Shown here in pieces: positions 3,835-64,000 of a DNA stretch of 64,000 bases. The translations under genes were made by a program, and so were the position numbers. Each line of letters begins with the position of its first letter. Position 1 is the first letter of the stretch. The DNA is from a virus, in IMG/VR virus record IMGVR_UViG_3300028591_000173, positions 4,799 through 68,798 of that record. The stretch is one strand, 5' to 3'. The notes under the pieces were generated by a model. That model was given only the letters and a program-made list of their open reading frames with translations, was not told where the DNA came from and made no database searches.

Positions 3835-4293
3835 ATGGCCGACGACAGAAACAAAAGATACATAGACGGCTACGACAGCGTCTACAAAGACGTCAGGGAA
3901 GGGCTCAAGAGAGGCGAGAAGAACGGCCACTGGATGTGGTTCATATTCCCGCAGGTGAAAGGGCTCGGCAAATCCCCGGTATCCGATTTCTACGCATTCG
4001 ACGGGATTGGGGACGCCAAGGCGTTCTACGCCAACTGGGGGCTCAGAAGGAGGCTCGTCAGCCTTTTCAGGATAGTCAACTCCTTCCCGGACAAGGCCTA
4101 TCTGACGAAATGCTTCGGCGAGACCGACTCCAAGAAGTTCCATTCGTGCGCGACCATATTCTATCTGGCCACCGGAAAACGCGTTTTCCGCAATTCGCTG
4201 GACAGGTTCTTCGGCGGGGCTTTGGACATAAAGACCGTGGACATACTCAGGGCGAGAAGCGAGTATAAGCCGGACGCTTTACCAAAGCGATAG
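3835..4293 (+). CDS. DUF1810-like small protein (motif HWMWFIFPQ); start trimmed to internal ATG
   Basis: ORF track 3631..4293; upstream part overlaps the preceding gene; ATG at 3835 follows stop 3830-3832. Confidence 0.5.
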   Translation: MADDRNKRYIDGYDSVYKDVREGLKRGEKNGHWMWFIFPQVKGLGKSPVSDFYAFDGIGDAKAFYANWGLRRRLVSLFRIVNSFPDKAYLTKCFGETDSKKFHSCATIFYLATGKRVFRNSLDRFFGGALDIKTVDILRARSEYKPDALPKR

Positions 4294-4789: not shown

Positions 4790-4808
4790 CCATAGGGGGT
4801 AACCGAAG

Positions 4809-21332: not shown

Positions 21333-22163
21333 ATGGAACTGACCAACGAAAACTACCACAGCATCGAAGCCCGATCCGAGTACATGGGCTATTCCCAATT
21401 CAAGGATTTCCTCGACTGCGAGAAGAAAGGCCTGGCAAGGGTCAAAGGGGAGCTCGAGGACGAATCGTCCCCGGCATTGCTCTTCGGAAGCTATGTCGAC
21501 AACTACTTCAGCAAAGAGATCCCGATGGAGGAATTCAAGGCGAAGCATCAGGAGATGTTCAAGAAAGACGGCACATTCAAATCCGATTTCAAGAACATCG
21601 AGCCGGTGATAGCCGCGATAGAGGGCGACAAGCTCCTGTCGAAATACCTCGGAGGCGAGCACCAGGTCATCATGACCGGCACGATAGCGGGCGTGAAATT
21701 CAAGATCAAGATAGACGCCTATCACCGCGACAAGGCGATAGTCGACCAGAAGATCATGAAGGACATGTCAAGCGTGTGGGTCGAGGTGACCGACGAAGAC
21801 GGGGAGAAACGCAACGTCAGGATGGATTTCATCAAGGCGTGGCGATACGACCTCGAGGGCGCCATCTATCAGGAGATAGAGCGCCAGTGGAACGTAAAGC
21901 ATGGAGGGGAGGACAGAAAACTCCCGTTCATACTCGCCGTCACCACGAAAGAGGATGTGCCCGACAAGGCACTCATCAAAATCGACCAGGATATCCTGGA
22001 CGCGGCATTGGCGGAAGTCGTCGAGAAGGCCCCTAGGTTCGACGCGATAAAACGCGGCGAGATAGAGCCGAAAGGATGCGGCTCCTGCGATGTCTGCAGG
22101 AAGGGGAAGATGCTCACGGGCGTGTTCTCCTACAAAAAGCTATTCCATATGGAGGAGGACTGA
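21333..22163 (+). CDS. PD-(D/E)XK nuclease, Cas4/RecB-like exonuclease with C-terminal Cys cluster
   Basis: IDAYHRD ... VDQKIMK core; GCGSCDVC ... C cluster. Confidence 0.65.
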   Translation: MELTNENYHSIEARSEYMGYSQFKDFLDCEKKGLARVKGELEDESSPALLFGSYVDNYFSKEIPMEEFKAKHQEMFKKDGTFKSDFKNIEPVIAAIEGDKLLSKYLGGEHQVIMTGTIAGVKFKIKIDAYHRDKAIVDQKIMKDMSSVWVEVTDEDGEKRNVRMDFIKAWRYDLEGAIYQEIERQWNVKHGGEDRKLPFILAVTTKEDVPDKALIKIDQDILDAALAEVVEKAPRFDAIKRGEIEPKGCGSCDVCRKGKMLTGVFSYKKLFHMEED

Positions 22164-22708: not shown

Positions 22709-23251
22709 ATGGCAGAAGAAAACAACAGCGAAGTCGTCTTCGGACGAGACAAGAAATCGGAAGCGCCGCAGGAGGACTTCCCCCTTATCGACGAAGGGTC
22801 TTATGAGGTCGTTTTGGAAGACGTCGAGGAAAAGAAATCGGCTAAGGGCTACGAATACCTCAAGCTCAGATTCTGCATCCGAACCGATGTCGAGCAGAAC
22901 TTCAAAAACAGAAAGCTGTGGTACACCATCTTCAAGAGAGACGGCGACAAAGCCTACAACTTCAACGCGTTCAACGAGCTCATCCTGACTCAGGAAGGGA
23001 CCCCTAATTACAAGGATCACTTCGGACCTGAGAACATCAAGGAAGAGATCATTCAGTACGTCATCGGCCTTCATATGAGAGTCGATGTCGGCATCGAGCT
23101 CAACAAAGCGACGAGCAAGGACGACAACGTCATCGTGGCCGGCACGTTCGCACCGTCCATCTGGGATGCCAGCCATCCTAAGACGGCCGCCGCGGACCCA
23201 AATCCGAACACAGCGCCTATCGACGACGTTTCCGACGATCTCCCGTTCTAA
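22709..23251 (+). CDS. putative ssDNA-binding protein (DUF669-like) with SSB-type acidic C-terminal tail DDVSDDLPF
   Basis: 180-aa ORF; C-terminal D-rich ...PF tail. Confidence 0.55.
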   Translation: MAEENNSEVVFGRDKKSEAPQEDFPLIDEGSYEVVLEDVEEKKSAKGYEYLKLRFCIRTDVEQNFKNRKLWYTIFKRDGDKAYNFNAFNELILTQEGTPNYKDHFGPENIKEEIIQYVIGLHMRVDVGIELNKATSKDDNVIVAGTFAPSIWDASHPKTAAADPNPNTAPIDDVSDDLPF

Positions 23252-57258: not shown

Positions 57259-58896
57259 ATGTCCATAACCGTGCAGGAATACATCAGGAAGAAAGCCCTT
57301 GGGCTGGTCGGCCTCATAGAGACGCCGATCGACCCGCGGGTCCGCGAGGAGAGGCTGACGTTCGTCAACAACATCAACGAGGACATCCAGAACAAGCTCC
57401 ACGAGTACTGCGTCTGGTACGGCGGGGACTCAGAGGAGATCCTGAACTACTACAGCAGGGCGCAGGTCCTCGATTTCAACTACGACCCGATCTACAACAG
57501 GAACAAGAAGTCCTACTTCTGGGCGGTCAGCGCCGTCGAGCAGGACATAAAGAGGACCCACTCAGGGCAGCCGAGGAACATCGTCGACACATTGGTCAAC
57601 ATAGTCGGCATCCCGAGGATAAGCGTCGGGTCCGGCGACAAGCTGAAGAAGCTCGACGGGAGGCTTCAGGAGATCCTCAGGGAGAACCACTTCACGAGGA
57701 TGGTCATGCAGCAGGCCAGGCCGATGACGTTCGTCGAGGGCTGGGGCGCATGGAAGATCAACTGGGACAAAGAGATATCGGACTGCCCGATACTGCTCTA
57801 CTACCGCGCCGACGCGGTCGATTTCGTGTATTCGTCCGGCAGGCTCAGGGCGATCATATACAAAGACTATTTCCAGGACGAGAACCGCAAGGACTACGTC
57901 CTGTTCGAGATACGCAGGAGGGACGGCAAGGACCTCGTCATCGAGAAGGAGCTCTTCAGGATGACGCCCGCCTCCGATCTGCTCACCCCGGTGAAGCTGG
58001 AATCGCTCCCTCAGCTGAAGGACGTCAGAAAGACGATCAGGGTCAGCAACTACAAGGGGTTCCTCGGATATCCGTGCATAATATACGAGGACAGCAACGC
58101 GGACACCTACGGCAGATCGATATTCACCGGCAAGATAGACCTGTTCGACGACCTCGACCAGTGCCTGTCCCAGTCGGCCAATACCGTGCGCAGATCCACC
58201 ACGCTGGAGTACTTCGACACGATGTACCTCGAGAAGGACGAGAAGACCGGCATGCCTAAGATGCCTCACGCCTTCGACAGGAAGTACGTCGCGTTCAAGG
58301 GCTTCAGGGGAGGCGACGGGCAGTCCGGCACGACCGGCCCTGTCACCGTAACCCAGCCTAAGCTCGACATCGCGCAGTACAGCGAGGAGGCCACGGCCAT
58401 ATTGCTCCAGATCATATCGGGCATCATGTCGCCGGCCACCCTCGGCATAGACATCGCCAAGAAGGACAACGCCCAGGCGCAGCGCGAGAAGGAGAAGGTC
58501 ACGATCTTCACCAGGAACACCGTCAAGGACGAGGAAGGCGAGACCTTCAGGAGGGTCGCGAACGACCTTCTGATCGCCGATGAGATGATGAGGACCAACG
58601 AGTGCACCTGCCATAACTACGACATCTCGGTCACGTACGACGAGTTCGCCGACTCCTCATTCGAGAACAAGCTCGAATCCGTGCTGGGAGGCTGGAGGGA
58701 AGGCCTGATCAGCGACGAGACGGCCGTCGACTACCTCTACGGCAAGAGCTGGTCCAAGGAGAGGAAGGACGAGGAGCTCGCCAGGATAAAGGCCAAGCGC
58801 GAGGAGTCCGAGAAGGATCCGTTCGCCCAGGGCGCCTATGGCGAGATGGGCGCGGAGAACCCTCACAACGATGCTCTCGAGGACGTTGAGATATAG
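57259..58896 (+). CDS. portal protein (SPP1 gp6-like), acidic C-terminus
   Basis: 545 aa; size and acidic tail; followed by a head-morphogenesis-like gene. Confidence 0.6.
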   Translation: MSITVQEYIRKKALGLVGLIETPIDPRVREERLTFVNNINEDIQNKLHEYCVWYGGDSEEILNYYSRAQVLDFNYDPIYNRNKKSYFWAVSAVEQDIKRTHSGQPRNIVDTLVNIVGIPRISVGSGDKLKKLDGRLQEILRENHFTRMVMQQARPMTFVEGWGAWKINWDKEISDCPILLYYRADAVDFVYSSGRLRAIIYKDYFQDENRKDYVLFEIRRRDGKDLVIEKELFRMTPASDLLTPVKLESLPQLKDVRKTIRVSNYKGFLGYPCIIYEDSNADTYGRSIFTGKIDLFDDLDQCLSQSANTVRRSTTLEYFDTMYLEKDEKTGMPKMPHAFDRKYVAFKGFRGGDGQSGTTGPVTVTQPKLDIAQYSEEATAILLQIISGIMSPATLGIDIAKKDNAQAQREKEKVTIFTRNTVKDEEGETFRRVANDLLIADEMMRTNECTCHNYDISVTYDEFADSSFENKLESVLGGWREGLISDETAVDYLYGKSWSKERKDEELARIKAKREESEKDPFAQGAYGEMGAENPHNDALEDVEI

Positions 58897-59731
58897 GATA
58901 TCCTGGCCCCTGGTCAGATGCGCGGCAGCGATATGCCGCGTTTTCTCGTCGGGGCATGGCAGGCAGCCTGCGCTGAAGGCTATCCGTGCTGAGATCTCAG
59001 GGCTGCCCGATCGGGCGCCGCTCACCAGGGACGAATGCTCCAGGGCGTGGCGGATCGCGTCGGGGCTCCAGAGGGAGCTGACCAGAAAGGCCGACCGCTA
59101 TCTGATGTCGGATCATGACCGTGCTGAGGCGGCCTACCTGGCGTTCAGGGATCTGATGCCGGGGATGATGAGGGCCATCGGGGAGCTCTCAAGGGACGCC
59201 GACTCCAGGATAAGGCTCGAGAGGGCCGAGAGGATCGCGTCCAGGGGGATCCTGTACCTGTGCTCATCCCACGCAGGATGCGCCGAAGGCCACCTGGAAT
59301 ACCAGGGGAGGCTCTACGTGAGCTCGCACTGGAGGGAGAGGTGCCGCGACGCCAGGCTCAGGAAGAGGCTTGCCAAGATGATCAGGGACAGGCATATCAG
59401 GACGGTCGAGTGGGCGATGGGCGCGCCGGCGTACCTGCTGACCAGGCCGAACTGCCGCCACAGGATGGTGAGGGTCCCGATCGAGGAGGCCCTGGGCTCC
59501 ACCGTGCGGAAGATGCTGAGGAGGAGGGATCTCATCCAGACCGACCCCGAAGAACCGGCTTGGGCCGGGGAGATCAGGAGGAAGAGGGCCCAGCTCAGGA
59601 TACTCCGATTCCTCCAGGGGGCCCTACCGTGCTCCGCTTTGGATGGGGACATAAGGAAGCTCAGCCGATCCATAAGGAAAACGGCCGCCAGGCATAAGCC
59701 TGACGACCGAGTCCCGAACCCCGCGGCATGA
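58871..59731 (+). CDS. putative minor head / head morphogenesis protein (Arg-rich)
   Basis: internal ATG of ORF 58838; position after portal. Confidence 0.4.
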   Translation: MLSRTLRYRISWPLVRCAAAICRVFSSGHGRQPALKAIRAEISGLPDRAPLTRDECSRAWRIASGLQRELTRKADRYLMSDHDRAEAAYLAFRDLMPGMMRAIGELSRDADSRIRLERAERIASRGILYLCSSHAGCAEGHLEYQGRLYVSSHWRERCRDARLRKRLAKMIRDRHIRTVEWAMGAPAYLLTRPNCRHRMVRVPIEEALGSTVRKMLRRRDLIQTDPEEPAWAGEIRRKRAQLRILRFLQGALPCSALDGDIRKLSRSIRKTAARHKPDDRVPNPAA

Positions 59732-59889
59732 TATGGATTTTTTGGTAAGGTAATGTTTGGCAAGAAAAGTGAGGTTTCCGCCGCGGGTATGCGATGCCGG
59801 TTTGGGCCGGCGGATCGTATCCTCTGAGTGAGGTGGGGAGGTTAGGGGCCTCCCCTCGTATTGTATTATGCTTGACTTATGTTAATTTG

Positions 59890-60135
59890 TCAAGCGTTTT
59901 CTTTTATTGCTGACAAGAAGCTGACTGGGACGAGCGATAGGATCCTCTCCCTGACGATGAAGTCGAGCATGAAGTTGCCCTTCTTCCCGGATTTCCTCTC
60001 CGGTCGGACCGAGGCGAACCTGATCCCCCTCTTCGTCTCAAGGCCCTCGATCTTCCCGATGAAGTAGCCTTGGCCCTTCTGATCCCAGGCCTTGACGGTC
60101 TGGCCTTTCGTGAACTTGTTTTTGGTATCCTTCAT
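59890..60135 (-). CDS. hypothetical protein
   Basis: SD aaggagg upstream of ATG at 60135. Confidence 0.5.
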   Translation of the reverse strand: MKDTKNKFTKGQTVKAWDQKGQGYFIGKIEGLETKRGIRFASVRPERKSGKKGNFMLDFIVRERILSLVPVSFLSAIKENA

Positions 60136-60205
60136 ATGCGGATCCTCCTTTTCGCAAGCTCATTCTAGCCTATTGATTATCATAAGTCAAGAGGTTTTTT
60201 TGATT

Positions 60206-60394
60206 TTAGATCATATAATCGTATTTTTTCTTGATCCTGCCCAACATCCTGGCGGCTTTCTTCCAGAACATCGAGCTTTTCCTGACGGGTTTCCCCACGA
60301 CTGGGTCGGCGAAGACGTGGAATCTCCCTGTGAACGTGTCCAGGTCGATGCCGCTTGAGCCGTTGCGGCCTGAGCTCCTGTAGATCTTCATCAT
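60206..60394 (-). CDS. small hypothetical protein
   Basis: ORF. Confidence 0.4.
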   Translation of the reverse strand: MMKIYRSSGRNGSSGIDLDTFTGRFHVFADPVVGKPVRKSSMFWKKAARMLGRIKKKYDYMI

Positions 60395-60588
60395 CTGCGT
60401 TTCCTCTTCCCGAGGGGGATCGCGAAGGATTCCTTGGCCTTGCTGAGCTCCTTGGCCTTGTTCAGGCTCTCAAGCTCTTTCCTGAACGCCGCGTACCTGG
60501 CGCATCCGTCGTGGCAGGCGGCATGCCTGTCCTCGCAGCCTTTGCATGGGGACATCAGCCCCCCGTTCCATCCGAATCCTGTGATCAT
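60391..60588 (-). CDS. Cys-rich small protein (CxxC...CxxxC)
   Basis: ORF. Confidence 0.45.
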   Translation of the reverse strand: MITGFGWNGGLMSPCKGCEDRHAACHDGCARYAAFRKELESLNKAKELSKAKESFAIPLGKRKRR

Positions 60589-60746
60589 CTTCCGGCTCCT
60601 CTCAGCGCCATCACCGCTTTGTTCATTATCTCGTTCATGCTCTTCTTGGTCCTCTTCGACCTGGTTCTCACGTACGCGTCCAGCTCAGGGGTGAGGTTGA
60701 CTGTGATGGATCTGCTCGCGTACGTGGCCTTGCCGTGCCGGCTCAT
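60585..60746 (-). CDS. ribbon-helix-helix (CopG/Arc-like) DNA-binding protein, 53 aa, not in ORF track
   Basis: MSRHGKATYASRSITVNLTPELDAYVRTRSKRTKKSMNEIMNKAVMAL; ATGA overlaps on both sides. Confidence 0.5.
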   Translation of the reverse strand: MSRHGKATYASRSITVNLTPELDAYVRTRSKRTKKSMNEIMNKAVMALRGAGR

Positions 60747-60943
60747 AGGTCCTCCTTCATCCTGATCAGCTCCGATGCGGAAAGCCCGAAGGCCCTCCTG
60801 AGCTTGTCCCAGGTCGATCGGCTGCCGCCGGATCTCCCGTTTTCGATGAGACAGTAGTTCGCGGTCGTGATCCCCAACCGTGCTGCCATCTCCCTCTGGG
60901 TGAGATCATGCCTGACCCTGAGTACTTTGAGTTCGGTCCTCAT
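60743..60943 (-). CDS. XRE-family HTH regulator
   Basis: LTQREMAARLGITTANYCLIENG. Confidence 0.65.
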   Translation of the reverse strand: MRTELKVLRVRHDLTQREMAARLGITTANYCLIENGRSGGSRSTWDKLRRAFGLSASELIRMKEDL

Positions 60944-61320
60944 GCCGCTTTCTCCCTCAGGTAGACGAAGATCGTCCCCTCTCTGACGCAGGCTTTCAGG
61001 CTGGCCCTGATCCTAAGCTCCCTGAACGCCTTCCTGATGACCGCCTCGACGGTGAGCCTCTCGTAAGGCTTCATGAAATCGATCCCGAAGACGTCGTAGG
61101 CCGGCGTCTCGATCTTCGGCCTCTCGTCCCCCCAGTACCAGAATATGACGACGTGGCTTGGGAACCCTTTCCGGATCTGCTTGCGCCTGACCGCCAGGAA
61201 AGCCCCCTCGCCGGCCAGCGCGACCCAGAACGCCTCAGGCGCCTTCTCGCTGAGCTCAGCGTCCTTGAGCTCCCTCGGGAACCTCTCTATCCCCATGTCT
61301 TTGATCTTTGCGTTCTCCAT
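60940..61320 (-). CDS. hypothetical protein, first gene of the - strand operon
   Basis: 126-aa ORF. Confidence 0.5.
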   Translation of the reverse strand: MENAKIKDMGIERFPRELKDAELSEKAPEAFWVALAGEGAFLAVRRKQIRKGFPSHVVIFWYWGDERPKIETPAYDVFGIDFMKPYERLTVEAVIRKAFRELRIRASLKACVREGTIFVYLREKAA

Positions 61321-61349
61321 ATTTATATACCTCTTTCTGTGTATGCCTT

Positions 61350-61379
61350 ATTCTATCGCCTATCATATGTAAATGTCAA
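61350..61379 (-). promoter_or_regulatory. sigma70-like promoter (- strand) TTGACA-N18-TAGAAT
   Basis: reverse complement of 61374-61379 / 61350-61355. Confidence 0.5.
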
Positions 61380-61408
61380 TAAAAAAATTATCGATGTTGA
61401 TCGGGACC

Positions 61409-61422
61409 CCCCTTACCGTGCT
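61409..61422. repeat. copy 1 of conserved motif CCCCTTACCGTGCT, flanked by GATCGGG direct repeats
   Basis: exact 14/15 match to the other copies. Confidence 0.7.
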
Positions 61423-61434
61423 CCGATCGGGCGC

Positions 61435-61458
61435 AAAAAGAAAAGGGGCCGAAGCCCC
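61435..61458 (-). terminator. intrinsic terminator (- strand) GGGGC-TTCG-GCCCC + TTTTCTTTTT
   Basis: 8 nt after the stop of 61466..62080. Confidence 0.7.
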
Positions 61459-61465
61459 GATCCGG

Positions 61466-62080
61466 TCAGTGCTGCCTGAAGTAGACCGACTGCCCTTTCT
61501 CCAGGGACCAGCAAGCCAGGCATTCGGGGCAATGCCCCCCGCATGGGATGGCCAGGTCCGGGATGTCCGGGTTGAGCTCGCCTTTCCTGAAGAGCACATA
61601 CGCGACCGGCAGCCTGTAAGGGTTGTCGACCCGGAATGACTTGCTCCAGGCGCTGAAGACGATTCTCAGGTTCTTGGGAATCCTGCCGCCGCGGCCTAAG
61701 TAGCCGTTGACGATGCCGAACTTCTTCGTGAAGCATAGGAACTTGACGCCCGGGCAGGCTTTCGCGACCTTCACCATCCCGAGGAAGTACGCGTCGTCGA
61801 CTATGTCCCCGACCGCATGCCAGCGGAAGTACTTATAGGAGACGAGCGAATCATTGAGGAATGAGACGATGTCGCCGAAGTACGCGTCGGAGTCCGCCAT
61901 ATAGCGCTCATAGTTGTGCCTGTGGGACTCCTGGACGTTCCTGAATAGGAAGTTGCCCCTCTTGCCGTAGCAGAGGCGCGCGCAGGGCGCGTCTTCCCTG
62001 CAGCTCATCTGGGGAGGCAGCGACACGCTTGGTATCTGCGAGCCCAGCTTCGAATTTGTCATTGAGATGTTGATTTCCAT
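61466..62080 (-). CDS. Cys-rich hypothetical protein (cassette 1); possibly DUF5131/Gp37-Gp68-like
   Basis: 204-aa ORF; SCREDAPCARLCYG and CGGHCPECLAC clusters. Confidence 0.55.
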   Translation of the reverse strand: MEINISMTNSKLGSQIPSVSLPPQMSCREDAPCARLCYGKRGNFLFRNVQESHRHNYERYMADSDAYFGDIVSFLNDSLVSYKYFRWHAVGDIVDDAYFLGMVKVAKACPGVKFLCFTKKFGIVNGYLGRGGRIPKNLRIVFSAWSKSFRVDNPYRLPVAYVLFRKGELNPDIPDLAIPCGGHCPECLACWSLEKGQSVYFRQH

Positions 62081-62099
62081 TTTCTTAACCTCTGACTAT

Positions 62100-62127
62100 A
62101 TATTACACTTACATACGCATATGTCAA
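62100..62127 (-). promoter_or_regulatory. promoter (- strand) TTGACA-N16-TAATAT
   Basis: reverse complement of 62122-62127 / 62100-62105. Confidence 0.45.
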
Positions 62128-62160
62128 GTAAATCTTTTGACGAATTTCATCTGATCACGA

Positions 62161-62203
62161 TGCACGGGCCTGGGAATCCGGATCCAGATGGGTTACCGTG
62201 CTG
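62161..62203. repeat. copy 2: inverted repeat TGCACGG...TTACCGTGCTG
   Basis: motif at 62193-62203. Confidence 0.65.
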
Positions 62204-62217
62204 CGATCGGGAGGCAT

Positions 62218-62243
62218 AAAAAAAGAGGCGGGTGATCCGCCTC
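62218..62243 (-). terminator. intrinsic terminator (- strand) GAGGCGG-ATCAC-CCGCCTC + TTTTTTT
   Basis: 17 nt after the stop of 62260..62523. Confidence 0.75.
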
Positions 62244-62259
62244 GATGCGACGCTGTCCG

Positions 62260-62523
62260 TCAGTCCTCGTCTTCCAGGAGCTCAGGCTCGCAGCCGGCTT
62301 TGTCGATGAGCCATTCCTTGAATGCCTCGTCAGGCGCGTCCGCGTCCTTGGTCAGCTCCCTGTATGCCTTGAGAAGGTCGACGGGGGTGTAGAAGTTGTC
62401 GTCGTAGGAGATGGCTTTGCTCTCGCCTTGGTAGTTCGCCATCACCCACATGCAATGCTCCTGTGAGTTGAAGAGCTCGACGTATGCGTCGCAGTAGTGG
62501 TTTTCGGTGTTCGGTTCTCTCAT
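62260..62523 (-). CDS. hypothetical acidic protein (cassette 2), start trimmed to ATG 62523
   Basis: SD aaggagg 7 nt upstream; the upstream part of track ORF 62260..62607 contains the promoter. Confidence 0.5.
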   Translation of the reverse strand: MREPNTENHYCDAYVELFNSQEHCMWVMANYQGESKAISYDDNFYTPVDLLKAYRELTKDADAPDEAFKEWLIDKAGCEPELLEDED

Positions 62524-62548
62524 ATACGAACCTCCTTTTCTATACCAT

Positions 62549-62577
62549 ATGTTAGCATCTCCTATGATATATGTCAA
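62549..62577 (-). promoter_or_regulatory. promoter (- strand) TTGACA-N17-TAACAT
   Basis: CCTATTGACATAT conserved with the 63303..63331 promoter. Confidence 0.55.
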
Positions 62578-62620
62578 TAGGTTTATTTGACTTTTATTAA
62601 CTTTCATCCAGATCAGATCG

Positions 62621-62665
62621 GAGCACGGAGGATCATCTGATGCCTGTCATCCCCTTACCGTGCTG
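62621..62665. repeat. copy 3: inverted repeat GAGCACGG-(22 nt)-CCCCTTACCGTGCTG
   Basis: motif 62651-62665. Confidence 0.7.
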
Positions 62666-62678
62666 GCTTTGGGCGCAT

Positions 62679-62710
62679 AAAAAAAAGAGGCAGAGCTAGC
62701 TGTCTGCCTC
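62679..62710 (-). terminator. intrinsic terminator (- strand) GAGGCAGA..TCTGCCTC + TTTTTTTT
   Basis: 10 nt after the stop of 62720..63274. Confidence 0.75.
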
Positions 62711-62719
62711 CCCTCCTTC

Positions 62720-63274
62720 CTAATCGCCTATAACCCAGAGGTAGTCTTCGGTCTGATTCCTTCTGTGAGGATTCAGGACGACGCTGACCAAGTCGTCTTT
62801 GTCGTAGTCGGGGTTCTCGATGATTCTGCCTTCGGAATCCTGCCCGGCTTCCTGAATCGACTGGGTGTCGTTCGTCACGCATTCCCCGTCTTTGTAGAGG
62901 AGATGCTCGCTGAACGCCATACCCGTCTCTTCGCTGAAGGCCTCGATTTCGCATCCCTTCGAGAGCTCTTTCAGGGTGGTTCCCATAAAGATGTCCGGGT
63001 GGTCGGTCTTCAGAAGGTCGTAGTAGGTGAGCTCGCCCTCGCACATACAGACATACAGGCTCCAAGCGCAGTACCCACTGACGAATTGGGTGAAGGTCCC
63101 GTCCCCGTTGTCGTGGACTTCATCGGCGTTCGCCTCGAAGACTCTCTGAAGGTGCTTGTGGGCCGGTTTGCCCTCACCGTAGTTGTAGTCGGCTTTCAGG
63201 CACTCAAGCACATTCTTGATGATGTTTTTGTCGCTACTTCTGATTTTCATCTCGTAGTCGCAGTAGTTCGGCAT
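62720..63274 (-). CDS. hypothetical Cys-containing protein (cassette 3), start trimmed to ATG 63274
   Basis: SD aaggaggg 8 nt upstream. Confidence 0.5.
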   Translation of the reverse strand: MPNYCDYEMKIRSSDKNIIKNVLECLKADYNYGEGKPAHKHLQRVFEANADEVHDNGDGTFTQFVSGYCAWSLYVCMCEGELTYYDLLKTDHPDIFMGTTLKELSKGCEIEAFSEETGMAFSEHLLYKDGECVTNDTQSIQEAGQDSEGRIIENPDYDKDDLVSVVLNPHRRNQTEDYLWVIGD

Positions 63275-63302
63275 ATCTATGCCCTCCTTTTCTTGTTGCC
63301 TT

Positions 63303-63331
63303 AATATTAAACCTATATAGGGCATATGTCA
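63303..63331 (-). promoter_or_regulatory. promoter (- strand) TTGACA-N17-TAATAT
   Basis: reverse complement of 63326-63331 / 63303-63308. Confidence 0.55.
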
Positions 63332-63374
63332 ATAGGGAATTAAGACTTTTATTAATTTTCTTATGAGCTCAGGA

Positions 63375-63419
63375 CAGCACGGGGCATGATCATCCGGATC
63401 GGATCCCCTTACCGTGCTG
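63375..63419. repeat. copy 4: inverted repeat CAGCACGGGG-(20 nt)-CCCCTTACCGTGCTG
   Basis: motif 63405-63419; spacer contains TGATCA / TCCGGA / GGATCC palindromes. Confidence 0.7.
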
Positions 63420-63440
63420 GCACATCGCCGGCGCGGCATG

Positions 63441-63466
63441 AAAAAAAGCGCCCTCGTTGGGGCGCT
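63441..63466 (-). terminator. intrinsic terminator (- strand) AGCGCCC-CAACGA-GGGCGCT + TTTTTTT
   Basis: 16 nt after the stop of 63482..63730. Confidence 0.75.
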
Positions 63467-63481
63467 CGCGAGAACCCTCGC

Positions 63482-63730
63482 TTAGAGGGTCTCGACTTTG
63501 AGCTTGGCTTCGAGTTGCTCGTAGACGGCTTTGGTGACGACGATGTCGGTTCCGCCCTCGAGGACGATTTTGTAGTTGCTCTCGTTCTCTTCGGTTCTCA
63601 CCTCGTTGCCATTCTCGTCGAAGAGTTTGGTAGGCTTGAGCTTGAGTTCCTTGACGGCGACGATTTTGTTGGTGTCGATGAGGGCGTCGGTTTCCTCGTG
63701 TTTGTGGTTGAGACGTTTGATTTTAAGCAT
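63482..63730 (-). CDS. hypothetical protein (cassette 4)
   Basis: 82-aa ORF, SD gagg. Confidence 0.5.
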   Translation of the reverse strand: MLKIKRLNHKHEETDALIDTNKIVAVKELKLKPTKLFDENGNEVRTEENESNYKIVLEGGTDIVVTKAVYEQLEAKLKVETL

Positions 63731-63800
63731 TGTTTTTTTCCTCGCTTTCTTTTTTTTGATTTAGGGGGAAGAGGTCTCTTTTTCTTCCCCCTATGCCTAT

Positions 63801-63829
63801 ATATTAAACTTATATATGGGACTTGTCAA
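63801..63829 (-). promoter_or_regulatory. promoter (- strand) TTGACA-N17-TAATAT, followed by a 5'-UTR hairpin GGGGGAAGA...TCTTCCCCC (63754-63791)
   Basis: reverse complement of 63824-63829 / 63801-63806. Confidence 0.5.
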
Positions 63830-63842
63830 CAACTTTTTAGAT

Positions 63843-64000
63843 TTATTTTATGTTCCTCACTTTGATGAGGTCTACGAGCATTCCACTCTTGTTGCGTTTC
63901 TCAATGAAAATGCATGCGTGTGGGACATTCTCAGGGACTTTGAAATGTTTTCCAAAGGCGAAAGCAGTCGCGTCAGCGTAGCTATAGAAAAAGCCTTTTT
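63843..64000 (-). CDS. partial CDS (C-terminal about 52 aa; start beyond window), cassette 5
   Basis: open frame to window edge, ends ...LIKVRNIK*. Confidence 0.35.
   Translation of the reverse strand, partial: KGFFYSYADATAFAFGKHFKVPENVPHACIFIEKRNKSGMLVDLIKVRNIK

Follow-up and report, generated by a model that had tools for sequence, protein, structure and literature searches.

The 64,000-nucleotide stretch of viral DNA analyzed here (IMG/VR record IMGVR_UViG_3300028591_000173, positions 4,799 to 68,798; in the following called the window) contains a short sequence element repeated between the small genes near its end. A first-pass annotation of this DNA had described the element as a conserved 15-nt motif inside an inverted repeat of about 45 bp, present at four gene cassette boundaries. 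This 15-mer is one local form of an asymmetric 9-bp element, a-CCGTGC-(T/A)-a, and the four copies belong to a more extensive junction element, not described before, of an uncharacterized phage lineage. The reading we favor, although we put its chances at only about even, is that the element is a stoperator-like binding site of one sequence-specific DNA-binding protein that would act on RNA polymerase at the junctions of an array of early genes.

Exact-protein lookups yielded contigs that match the window without a mismatch over stretches of 10.5 kb and 6 kb and extend it on both sides. Together with these contigs, L014 and L034, the window yields a complete circular genome of 77,646 bp. The long plus-strand arm of the genome carries tail and head genes, a prim-pol/D5-type helicase, an SF2 helicase, TerL, and the portal gene. 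The short minus-strand arm is the early array, 13.7 kb with about 20 single-gene cassettes bearing promoters. Its final 4 kb lie inside the window, where positions 59890–64000 read on the minus strand as a run of such cassettes. Each cassette consists of a near-consensus σ70-type promoter (TTGACA-17-TAATAT), a strong Shine–Dalgarno sequence, a small open reading frame (ORF), and an intrinsic terminator. The array is situated between the portal gene with the adjacent 297-aa ORF (57259–59731) and the genes for the scaffold and the major head protein (L034 6275–8936), and splits the head-morphogenesis module. It is inserted in inverse orientation; therefore, one of its ends diverges from the long arm and the other converges with it at 59732–59889.

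Across the array the conserved unit is the core CCGTGC, mostly followed by T, and neither the 15-mer nor the inverted repeat; the sequences flanking the cores are unrelated. The consensus derived from 203 sites of eight relatives is a-CCGTGC-(T 62% / A 27%)-a and is asymmetric. In the 5.3 kb of intergenic DNA of the array, CCGTGCT occurs 25 times on the sense strand versus 0.24 times expected, an enrichment of about 100-fold, and 6 times in inverted orientation. When both strands of the genome are considered, 45 of the 47 copies of CCGTGC are situated within 57269–72549 (window orientation). This domain of 15.3 kb makes up 20% of the genome and consists of the early array and the two convergent genes adjoining it. 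The other 57 kb contain two copies versus 21.7 expected (Poisson 1e-7), which is an about ten-fold depletion and places CCGTGC at rank 20 among 3,570 hexamers for under-representation outside the domain. None of the 35 intergenic copies in the genome overlaps a promoter hexamer. A literature search with the raw word returned primer noise only.

Whether cassette junctions of other phages carry the element had been suggested as a check, and in the relatives they do. The word is kept in at least 12 relatives with GC contents of 32–55%, despite different cargo genes and spacers; in L018–L027 and L039, which span this range of GC content, CCGTGC is found with the same layout. The cargo genes of the array are almost wholly different between relatives and only the gene of a GP88-family protein (61466–62080) is common to all. 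GP88, the marker gene of this lineage with more than 500 protein clusters (538 homologue clusters), is the sole array gene conserved across it, and every relative with a GP88 identity of at least 48% has 15–30 copies of the word per 20 kb. Homologues of GP88 are encoded in about 50 complete genomes with sizes of 74–81 kb. Two relatives mostly use CCGTGCA. A search of IMG/VR with the exact 15-mer gave 13 single matches, a chance-like result. Two strains could be compared at 21 shared cores. No change was found at the 126 core positions versus 178 changes at 2365 positions (7.5%) of the other intergenic DNA (P = 1e-4), while the bases next to the cores do vary between the two strains. This is direct evidence for purifying selection on the six core bases.

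A more distant relative, L041 (GC 28%, 21 array promoters; L041 1–18366), is without CCGTGC. It has instead 18 copies of an 18-bp palindrome, AGAATAATTAAATATTCT, which are placed 8–12 nt past the T-tracts and 56–77 nt before the -35 hexamers. This palindrome looks like a classic dimer operator. Because a different, operator-like sequence occupies the same slot, the slot is probably a protein-binding position that is filled in a lineage-specific manner. In L041 we also noted the hexamer ATGACG, which occurs 20 times, always on the array-sense strand.

The element obeys two spacing rules, the first of which concerns the terminators. In nine genomes 111 of the 126 predicted terminators have a site no more than 60 nt away, and the distance between the last T and the site is most often 10–14 nt, whichever way the site is oriented. 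Sites follow terminators with or without a downstream promoter (73 of 81 and 38 of 45, respectively). With strict predictions in the genome of the window, all 13 array terminators have a site within 60 nt versus none of the five long-arm terminators, three of which directly precede σ70-like promoters. Accordingly, the element marks one class of transcription units. Protein roadblocks halt the active site of RNA polymerase about 11–15 bp short of the obstacle. Since the observed gap equals this distance, a polymerase reading through the terminator would be held on the T-tract by a protein bound to the element, which would touch the front of the enzyme while the active site is still on the T-tract. 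The bound protein could in this way be the backstop of each array terminator and an insulator.

The second rule concerns the promoters. The site nearest to the -35 sequence TTGAC is found at distances of 18, 28–29, 38–40, 48–51, 58–62, 69–73, 79–82, and 89–93 nt, which corresponds to 18 + 10.5·k nt (Rayleigh R = 0.78, n = 82, highest for a 10.5-bp period). The values for the single genomes range from 0.73 to 0.92 with the same phase throughout. Spacers of equal length have a median identity of only 38%, and R is 0.77 once similar spacers are removed. Inverted promoter-proximal sites share the same helical register, and the compact relative L027 has a fixed site-to-promoter distance of 18 nt. 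As the nearest site lies on one helix face with respect to the -35 sequence, a bound protein could touch, or at least not clash with, the promoter-bound polymerase. The early promoters might thereby be controlled as a class, whether by being shut off or by being stimulated.

We considered that the element could serve the promoters alone, as an upstream element. A class-I-type activator or a shut-off repressor similar to phi29 p4 would then bind CCGTGC and contact the promoter-bound polymerase from one helical face, and the closeness to the terminators would be a by-product of compact spacers. The strict phasing in every genome and the fixed distance in L027 agree with this, as does the specificity for array promoters, the element being absent at the σ70-like promoters of the long arm. 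The site centers at about -50.5, -61, -71.5, -82, and -92.5 also fall into the register of class I CAP sites, which share with phi29 p4 the dependence on the helix face. Nevertheless, we regard this explanation as rather unlikely. It does not account for the sites behind terminators that lack a downstream promoter, nor for the T-tract gap, which is as sharp as the promoter phasing, and the copies inside coding sequences serve no promoter. The promoters themselves are already near consensus and need no activator. Furthermore, the site is asymmetric and 9 bp long, in contrast to the 22-bp dyad of the known sites, and it is tied to the upstream terminator as well.

The sites are polar. In all nine genomes they form two sets on opposite strands, which overlap near the convergence point (the distribution in the genome of the window is given in Table 1). 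Here, 29 of the 35 intergenic copies and all eight copies in the portal gene and the 297-aa ORF lie on the local sense strand. The exceptions are six terminator-proximal inverted copies, which include the four annotated first. In the portal gene and the 297-aa ORF, 8 of the 13 contexts able to encode CCGTGC use it, compared with none of 98 in the remaining genes of the long arm (P = 3e-9). Ten relatives have 69 sense and 4 antisense copies in these two genes, where 0.08–0.35 are expected per genome, and the enrichment ends at the portal start. We rejected a peptide-driven origin of the coding copies because they use three reading frames and the synonymous test is significant. The only copies within coding sequence of the array are the antisense ones at 60733–60738 and 60878–60883, in a 53-aa ORF and the XRE ORF; the latter copy corresponds to the near-match 60871–60885 of a mismatch search.

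Such polar sets raise the question whether a DNA-tracking machine other than RNA polymerase meets a barrier or marker here. This could be a Ter-like fork trap at the convergence point or a marker of a packaging or ejection domain, for instance for a capsid-internal protein on the DNA ejected first. Two opposed groups of asymmetric sites flanking a convergence zone are known from Tus–Ter and RTP, and by this analogy the polarity of the sites may be functional for both forks and polymerases. The overlap of both sets near the convergence point in all nine genomes, the selection of the in-gene copies at the synonymous level, and the strong avoidance elsewhere, which fits a signal harmful when ectopic, point in this direction. 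We still hold the barrier to be improbable: 45 sites are far above the number in known fork traps, the sites are much shorter than those of Ter and RTP (6–9 versus 23–30 bp), and no Tus-, RTP-, or contrahelicase-like protein was found among the scanned proteins. The T-tract spacing and the -35 phasing would be left unexplained, and the coupling to terminator and promoter has no counterpart in the fork traps.

An orientation that mostly follows transcription would also suit a short promoter read by an RNA polymerase or sigma factor of the phage itself. The sequence CAGCACGGTAAGGGG, which is the form of the four first annotated copies on the gene-sense strand, loosely resembles T7- and Syn5-type promoters. 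However, the scanned proteins include no RNA polymerase and no sigma factor, a second conserved box is lacking within 20 nt on either side of CCGTGC, inverted copies keep the same spacing rules, and the word is lacking in the rest of the genome. A structured RNA element was considered together with this possibility, but Rfam gave nothing across the array at E < 0.1 and the folds are weak (see below). We think that both are very improbable.

The four copies of the 15-mer described in the window are indeed present, all on the plus strand. Their coordinates had to be amended in one case: 62193–62203 comprises only TTACCGTGCTG, and the fuller second copy starts 3 nt earlier. The 19-mers at 62649–62667 and 63403–63421 are identical. 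As annotated, each copy follows the intrinsic terminator of one cassette, only a few nucleotides past the T-tract, and precedes the σ70-like promoter of the next cassette. The genes at these positions are on the minus strand, and the conserved block runs from the motif into the T-tract. The opposed arm was recovered in three copies, as AGCACGG at 63376–63382 and 62622–62628 and as GCACGG at 62162–62167. It represents an opposed core (CCGTGCT on the sense strand) situated 34–35 nt after the first one and followed by an AT-rich stretch and then the -35 sequence. The GATCGGG direct repeats around the first copy were found at 61399–61405 and 61425–61431.

Other parts of the description had to be revised. 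Instead of one copy per boundary, 16 of the 21 array intergenic regions have one to three copies and the rest have none; the promoter regions 63801–63829 and 60162–60190 of the window, for example, are without any copy. The inverted repeat exists at the four boundaries as described but is a minority form, being found in six intergenic regions including these four and thus at 6 of the 16 site-bearing junctions. Its arms are 24–63 nt apart across the family, and the loop sequence is not conserved. The GATC palindromes of the loop are not special, GATC not being enriched in the array (4.8 versus 5.3 per kb). Nor is the imperfect hairpin convincing: folds of the four inverted repeats barely beat shuffled sequences, with z-scores of -2.4, -1.5, -0.3, and -0.25 as single-stranded DNA and of -1.2 to -0.1 as RNA, and the pairing is restricted to the two opposed heptamers, that is the opposed cores.

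A tandem duplication including the genes had been named as a trivial origin of the repeats. It does not apply because the repeats are limited to short intergenic pieces of at most 44 nt (the motif with the T-tract, and promoters) and the genes between them are unrelated. Likewise, the 15-mer is not scattered through coding regions, although its 6-bp core does recur in two specific genes. The proposal of a boundary-specific, functional cis-element beyond the promoter and terminator consensus is supported, and the term operator site, which had been offered as one of its possible meanings, comes close to our preferred reading.

The other meaning offered was an integron attC-like or other site-specific recombination site, the hairpin of which is cut by a dedicated recombinase. 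In favor of this idea are the imperfect inverted repeats, each about 45 bp long, at four cassette boundaries in a row. It is now largely refuted and keeps scarcely any probability. No tyrosine or serine recombinase was found among the ORFs of at least 150 aa, the proteins of the array, the genes outside the window, and some of the smaller long-arm ORFs. Each cassette has its own near-consensus promoter, Shine–Dalgarno sequence, and terminator, whereas integron cassettes are promoterless and depend on a common promoter. Moreover, the repeat is confined to a minority of the junctions with variable spacing, it forms no stable single-stranded hairpin, and the conservation is limited to 6 nt.

Table 1. 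Sites of the junction element and transcription signals in the window and the early array (positions refer to the window).
Feature	Position	Strand	Remarks
Sites in array-sense orientation	upstream two-thirds of array	-	29 copies
Sites in opposite orientation	last third of array, directly after terminators	+	6 copies
Sites in opposite orientation	53-aa and XRE ORFs	+	2 copies
Sites in opposite orientation	297-aa ORF and portal gene	+	8 copies, on the sense strand of these genes, all three frames
CCGTGC in portal gene	57269, 58072, 58184, 58679	+ (sense)	four copies
CCGTGC in 297-aa ORF	58984, 59119, 59502, 59627	+ (sense)	four copies
Copy 1 of the 15-mer	61409–61423	+	CCCCTTACCGTGCTC, 1 mismatch; single inverted site; core 61416–61421; between terminator 61458–61436 and -35 at 61379, 42 nt away
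Copy 2 of the 15-mer	62190–62203	+	GGGTTACCGTGCTG, partial; core 62196–62201; terminator-proximal, inverted; after terminator 62244–62218
Partner site of copy 2	62162–62167	- (array-sense)	CCGTGCA variant; 40 nt before -35 at 62127
Copy 3 of the 15-mer	62651–62665	+	exact; core 62658–62663; terminator-proximal, inverted; after terminator 62711–62679
Partner site of copy 3	62623–62628	- (array-sense)	51 nt before -35 at 62577
Copy 4 of the 15-mer	63405–63419	+	exact; core CCGTGC 63412–63417; terminator-proximal, inverted with respect to array genes; 14–23 nt past T-tract of terminator 63467–63441
Partner site of copy 4	63377–63382	- (array-sense)	CCGTGC; promoter-proximal; 50 nt before -35 at 63332
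Intrinsic terminators of cassettes	63467–63441, 62711–62679, 62244–62218, 61458–61436	-	predicted
σ70-type array promoters (-35 start to -10 end)	63829–63801, 63332–63304, 62577–62549, 62127–62100, 61379–61350, 60190–60162	-	10–11 of 12 consensus matches
Convergence point of early array and long plus-strand arm	59732–59889	.	contains hairpin 59844–59856

From the six invariant asymmetric bases, the conservation throughout the family at varied GC content, the depletion elsewhere, the fixed gap, the helical register, and the orientation following transcription, we infer that the element is a protein-bound cis-element which acts on RNA polymerase. Besides its suggested roles at terminators and promoters, the two opposed polar sets around the head-on meeting of the array and the head-gene operon would stop polymerases, or forks, from crossing between the arms. 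The putative binding protein is probably encoded by the phage and conserved, and it may be delivered with the virion.

Several points weigh against this reading. No binding protein was found. The only universally conserved array gene, GP88, appears to encode an Fe-S or radical-SAM-like enzyme and has no DNA-binding fold match. The near-consensus promoters need no activator here either, and a promoter downstream of a roadblock cannot be repressed by the roadblock alone. Both orientations of the site follow the same spacing rules, which leaves the role of the orientation unexplained. An extra assumption is needed for the sense copies in the portal gene and the next ORF, which end exactly at the portal start. 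A phage protein, moreover, cannot act before it is synthesized unless it is injected with the DNA. Finally, the evidence is entirely positional and comparative, and the phage infects an uncultured host.

Candidates for the binding protein were looked for in the window. The annotation had pointed to an XRE and a ribbon-helix-helix (RHH) protein at 60585–60943 as cognate binders. The XRE protein (60743–60943) is a real family match, but it was rejected since it and its neighbors are absent from relatives that keep the word. The 53-aa 'RHH' protein was rejected as well; it has no family match and is not conserved. GP88 has invariant cysteine clusters (CX5CX3C and CX3CX2CX2C). Its structural model is confident (pLDDT 89) and gave no significant fold match in the PDB. 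Because its fold matches are only weakly radical-SAM-like, GP88 is probably an enzyme, and we regard it as a poor candidate.

The closest known analogue of the element is the stoperator system of the cluster A mycobacteriophages with its immunity repressor of the L5 gp71 type, a monomer of temperate phages that combines a helix-turn-helix with a stoperator domain. Stoperators are dispersed asymmetric sites that are bound by a monomer and whose orientation follows transcription (PMC9283540). Both systems have many short asymmetric sites dispersed in short intergenic spaces, with a copy number above 20 also reached here; in both, site orientation is correlated with the transcription direction of the two genome arms, and an action on the elongating host RNA polymerase is proposed. 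They differ in several respects. The core found here is 6–9 bp long and of other sequence (13-mer in L5). The sites are confined to 20% of the genome and depleted elsewhere instead of being distributed genome-wide; they have a fixed gap after intrinsic terminators and a helical register with the next promoter, and two coding genes contain copies as well. The phage showed no homologue of the repressor, no integrase, and nothing else pointing to lysogeny, the helix-turn-helix (HTH) proteins of the array are not conserved in motif-bearing relatives, and the host belongs to the Bacillota and not to Mycobacterium. Because of the different sequence, the lacking integrase, and the nonconserved HTH proteins, we treat the element as an analogue of the stoperators and not as a member.

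Further known elements were compared and dropped. σ54 -24/-12 elements, the T4 MotA box (TGCTTtA), λ boxA, the Spx AGCA element, and the CIRCE half-site, where comparable, did not agree in sequence, position, or spacing. CIRCE, the operator of HrcA, is a 9-bp inverted repeat, TTAGCACTC-N9-GAGTGCTAA. It has only GTGCT(AA) in common with the element; the invariant CC differs, and our sites are mostly single or, where inverted pairs are formed, 24–63 nt apart.

Arrays of this type are known from other phages. The terminal redundancy of SPO1 and the first-step-transfer region of T5 are arrays of host-takeover or pre-early genes, and with them the array shares the long run of small early genes, the many strong host-type promoters, and a terminator per unit. 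The array described here is located internally on the circular map, between the portal and scaffold genes, unlike those of SPO1 and T5. No family-wide junction motif of this geometry is known from arrays of the SPO1 or T5 type. In the promoter-early stem–loop (PeSL) cassettes of T4-type phages, shuffling occurs at conserved terminator/promoter motifs (PMC2839356, PMC4122927). Here as well, the genes of a plastic region, which are small, hypervariable, and for the most part ORFans, are flanked by composite motifs of terminator and promoter, and the conserved junctions may be exchange points. The phage studied here deviates by the third, separately conserved CCGTGC between stem–loop and promoter with its own spacing, polarity, and coding copies, by its siphovirus-like portal and Bacillota host with no T4-like core genes seen, and by the arrangement of the array as one contiguous 13.7-kb block in inverse orientation inside the head-gene module.

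A single cassette replacement was found that breaks at a junction (n = 1). In L014 4557–5014 compared with L015 225–592, a unit of promoter, ORF, and terminator hairpin is replaced; the 95% homology ends 9 nt after one CCGTGC and resumes at the T-tract 20 nt before the next, and the incoming spacer resembles a paralogous junction. The element could also be a Chi-like recombination hotspot or a microhomology anchor that drives cassette exchange between co-infecting phages in the manner of PeSL shuffling. It is a short asymmetric word whose polarity switches by region, hypervariable cargo genes lie between the conserved junctions, and the phage genome encodes a PDDEXK exonuclease along with a DUF669 protein. 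We take this explanation to be quite improbable, since it gives no reason for the 10–14 nt gap, the promoter register, or the avoidance elsewhere. Chi sites are recognized by RecBCD or AddAB of the host and are both over-represented and strand-skewed along its whole chromosome. The Chi sequence differs between genera, whereas the same word is found in phages of 32–55% GC, probably with different host genera, and L041 has a palindrome in the same slot. A break at the element, as in the L014/L015 event, is expected under any functional reading because breakpoints must fall in whatever is conserved. The PDDEXK-type exonuclease (DUF3799, E = 2.5e-59; 21333–22163) and the DUF669 protein (22709–23251) suggest a phage with its own recombination functions, which would aid junction-mediated cassette exchange.

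If the element is a stoperator-like site, it would add another, independent example of stoperator-style genome-wide control through dispersed sites of fixed direction, in another phylum and in a phage without detected lysogeny genes. It would follow new rules: a fixed gap after terminators, a helical register with the next promoter, synonymous in-gene copies, and active avoidance elsewhere. The combination of terminator, 9-mer, and promoter would then be a compact natural 'insulator part' for synthetic biology in Bacillota, and the element a sequence signature for early or host-takeover arrays in metagenomic phages. As the junctions appear to be cassette-swap points, they would link gene regulation to the trade of accessory genes between phages. 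A more far-reaching proposal, to which we assign only a small chance, is an undescribed cis-element system of a widespread family of Bacillota gut and rumen phages in which a conserved protein, possibly delivered with the virion, reads the polar 9-bp sites in three roles: it would backstop terminators, dock in the promoter register, and, through the opposed polar sets including the synonymous copies in the portal gene and the 297-aa ORF, act as a 'collision trap' and insulator for transcription or replication.

The assignment of the phage rests on the following matches. The product of the portal gene (57259–58896) matches phrog_533 (E = 2e-52) and has 27–31% identity with portal proteins annotated in siphoviruses of Streptococcus, Anaerostipes, and Clostridium. 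The next ORF, conserved and 297 aa long, extends from 58838 to 59731; the label 'MuF-like' was rejected for it, as it is unsupported by Pfam, PHROGs, and tblastn. Relatives are placed in bins of Clostridia and Bacillota metagenome-assembled genomes, which stem from faeces and ruminants. In a blastn search of the region against annotated phages no match was obtained, and there is no close cultured relative. TerL and a DprA-like protein, used as queries for related loci, returned no relatives, and a 1,705-aa protein has no match in Pfam, PHROGs, or the PDB.

Some further observations concern the surroundings of the sites and the array. Words containing CTG or CAG (for example CTGGA, CAGGA, CATCTG, CTGAT, and AGCTG) are enriched about three-fold within 45 nt of the sites in all nine genomes, with no fixed offset; examples of such spacers in the window are 62600–62650 and 63383–63404. 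Such words may represent a further, degenerate signal or simply reflect biased composition. At the far end of the array a strong promoter (TTGACA-17-CATAAT; 59865–59893, minus strand) fires toward the convergent junction, where the hairpin 59844–59856 follows within about 10 nt; promoter and hairpin may give rise to a very short transcript or act as a decoy. Two units in L014, 4003–4300 and 3009–3212, located 5–6 kb past the end of the window, have a consensus promoter and a terminator and no ORF. The 265-nt transcript predicted for one of them is significantly structured (minimum free energy -108 kcal/mol, z = -3.3, 0 of 200 shuffles as good) and the 171-nt transcript is not (z = +0.1); neither unit has a match in Rfam.

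Apart from the element, a few other short words are unusually distributed in this genome. The pentamer CAATC/GATTG is present only twice on both strands of the whole genome versus about 116 copies expected, at positions 4005 and 28880 of the window. AAGCTT occurs twice versus 57 expected copies and ACCGGT not at all versus 25 expected. The scarcity of these three words looks like a strong avoidance of restriction-type sites.

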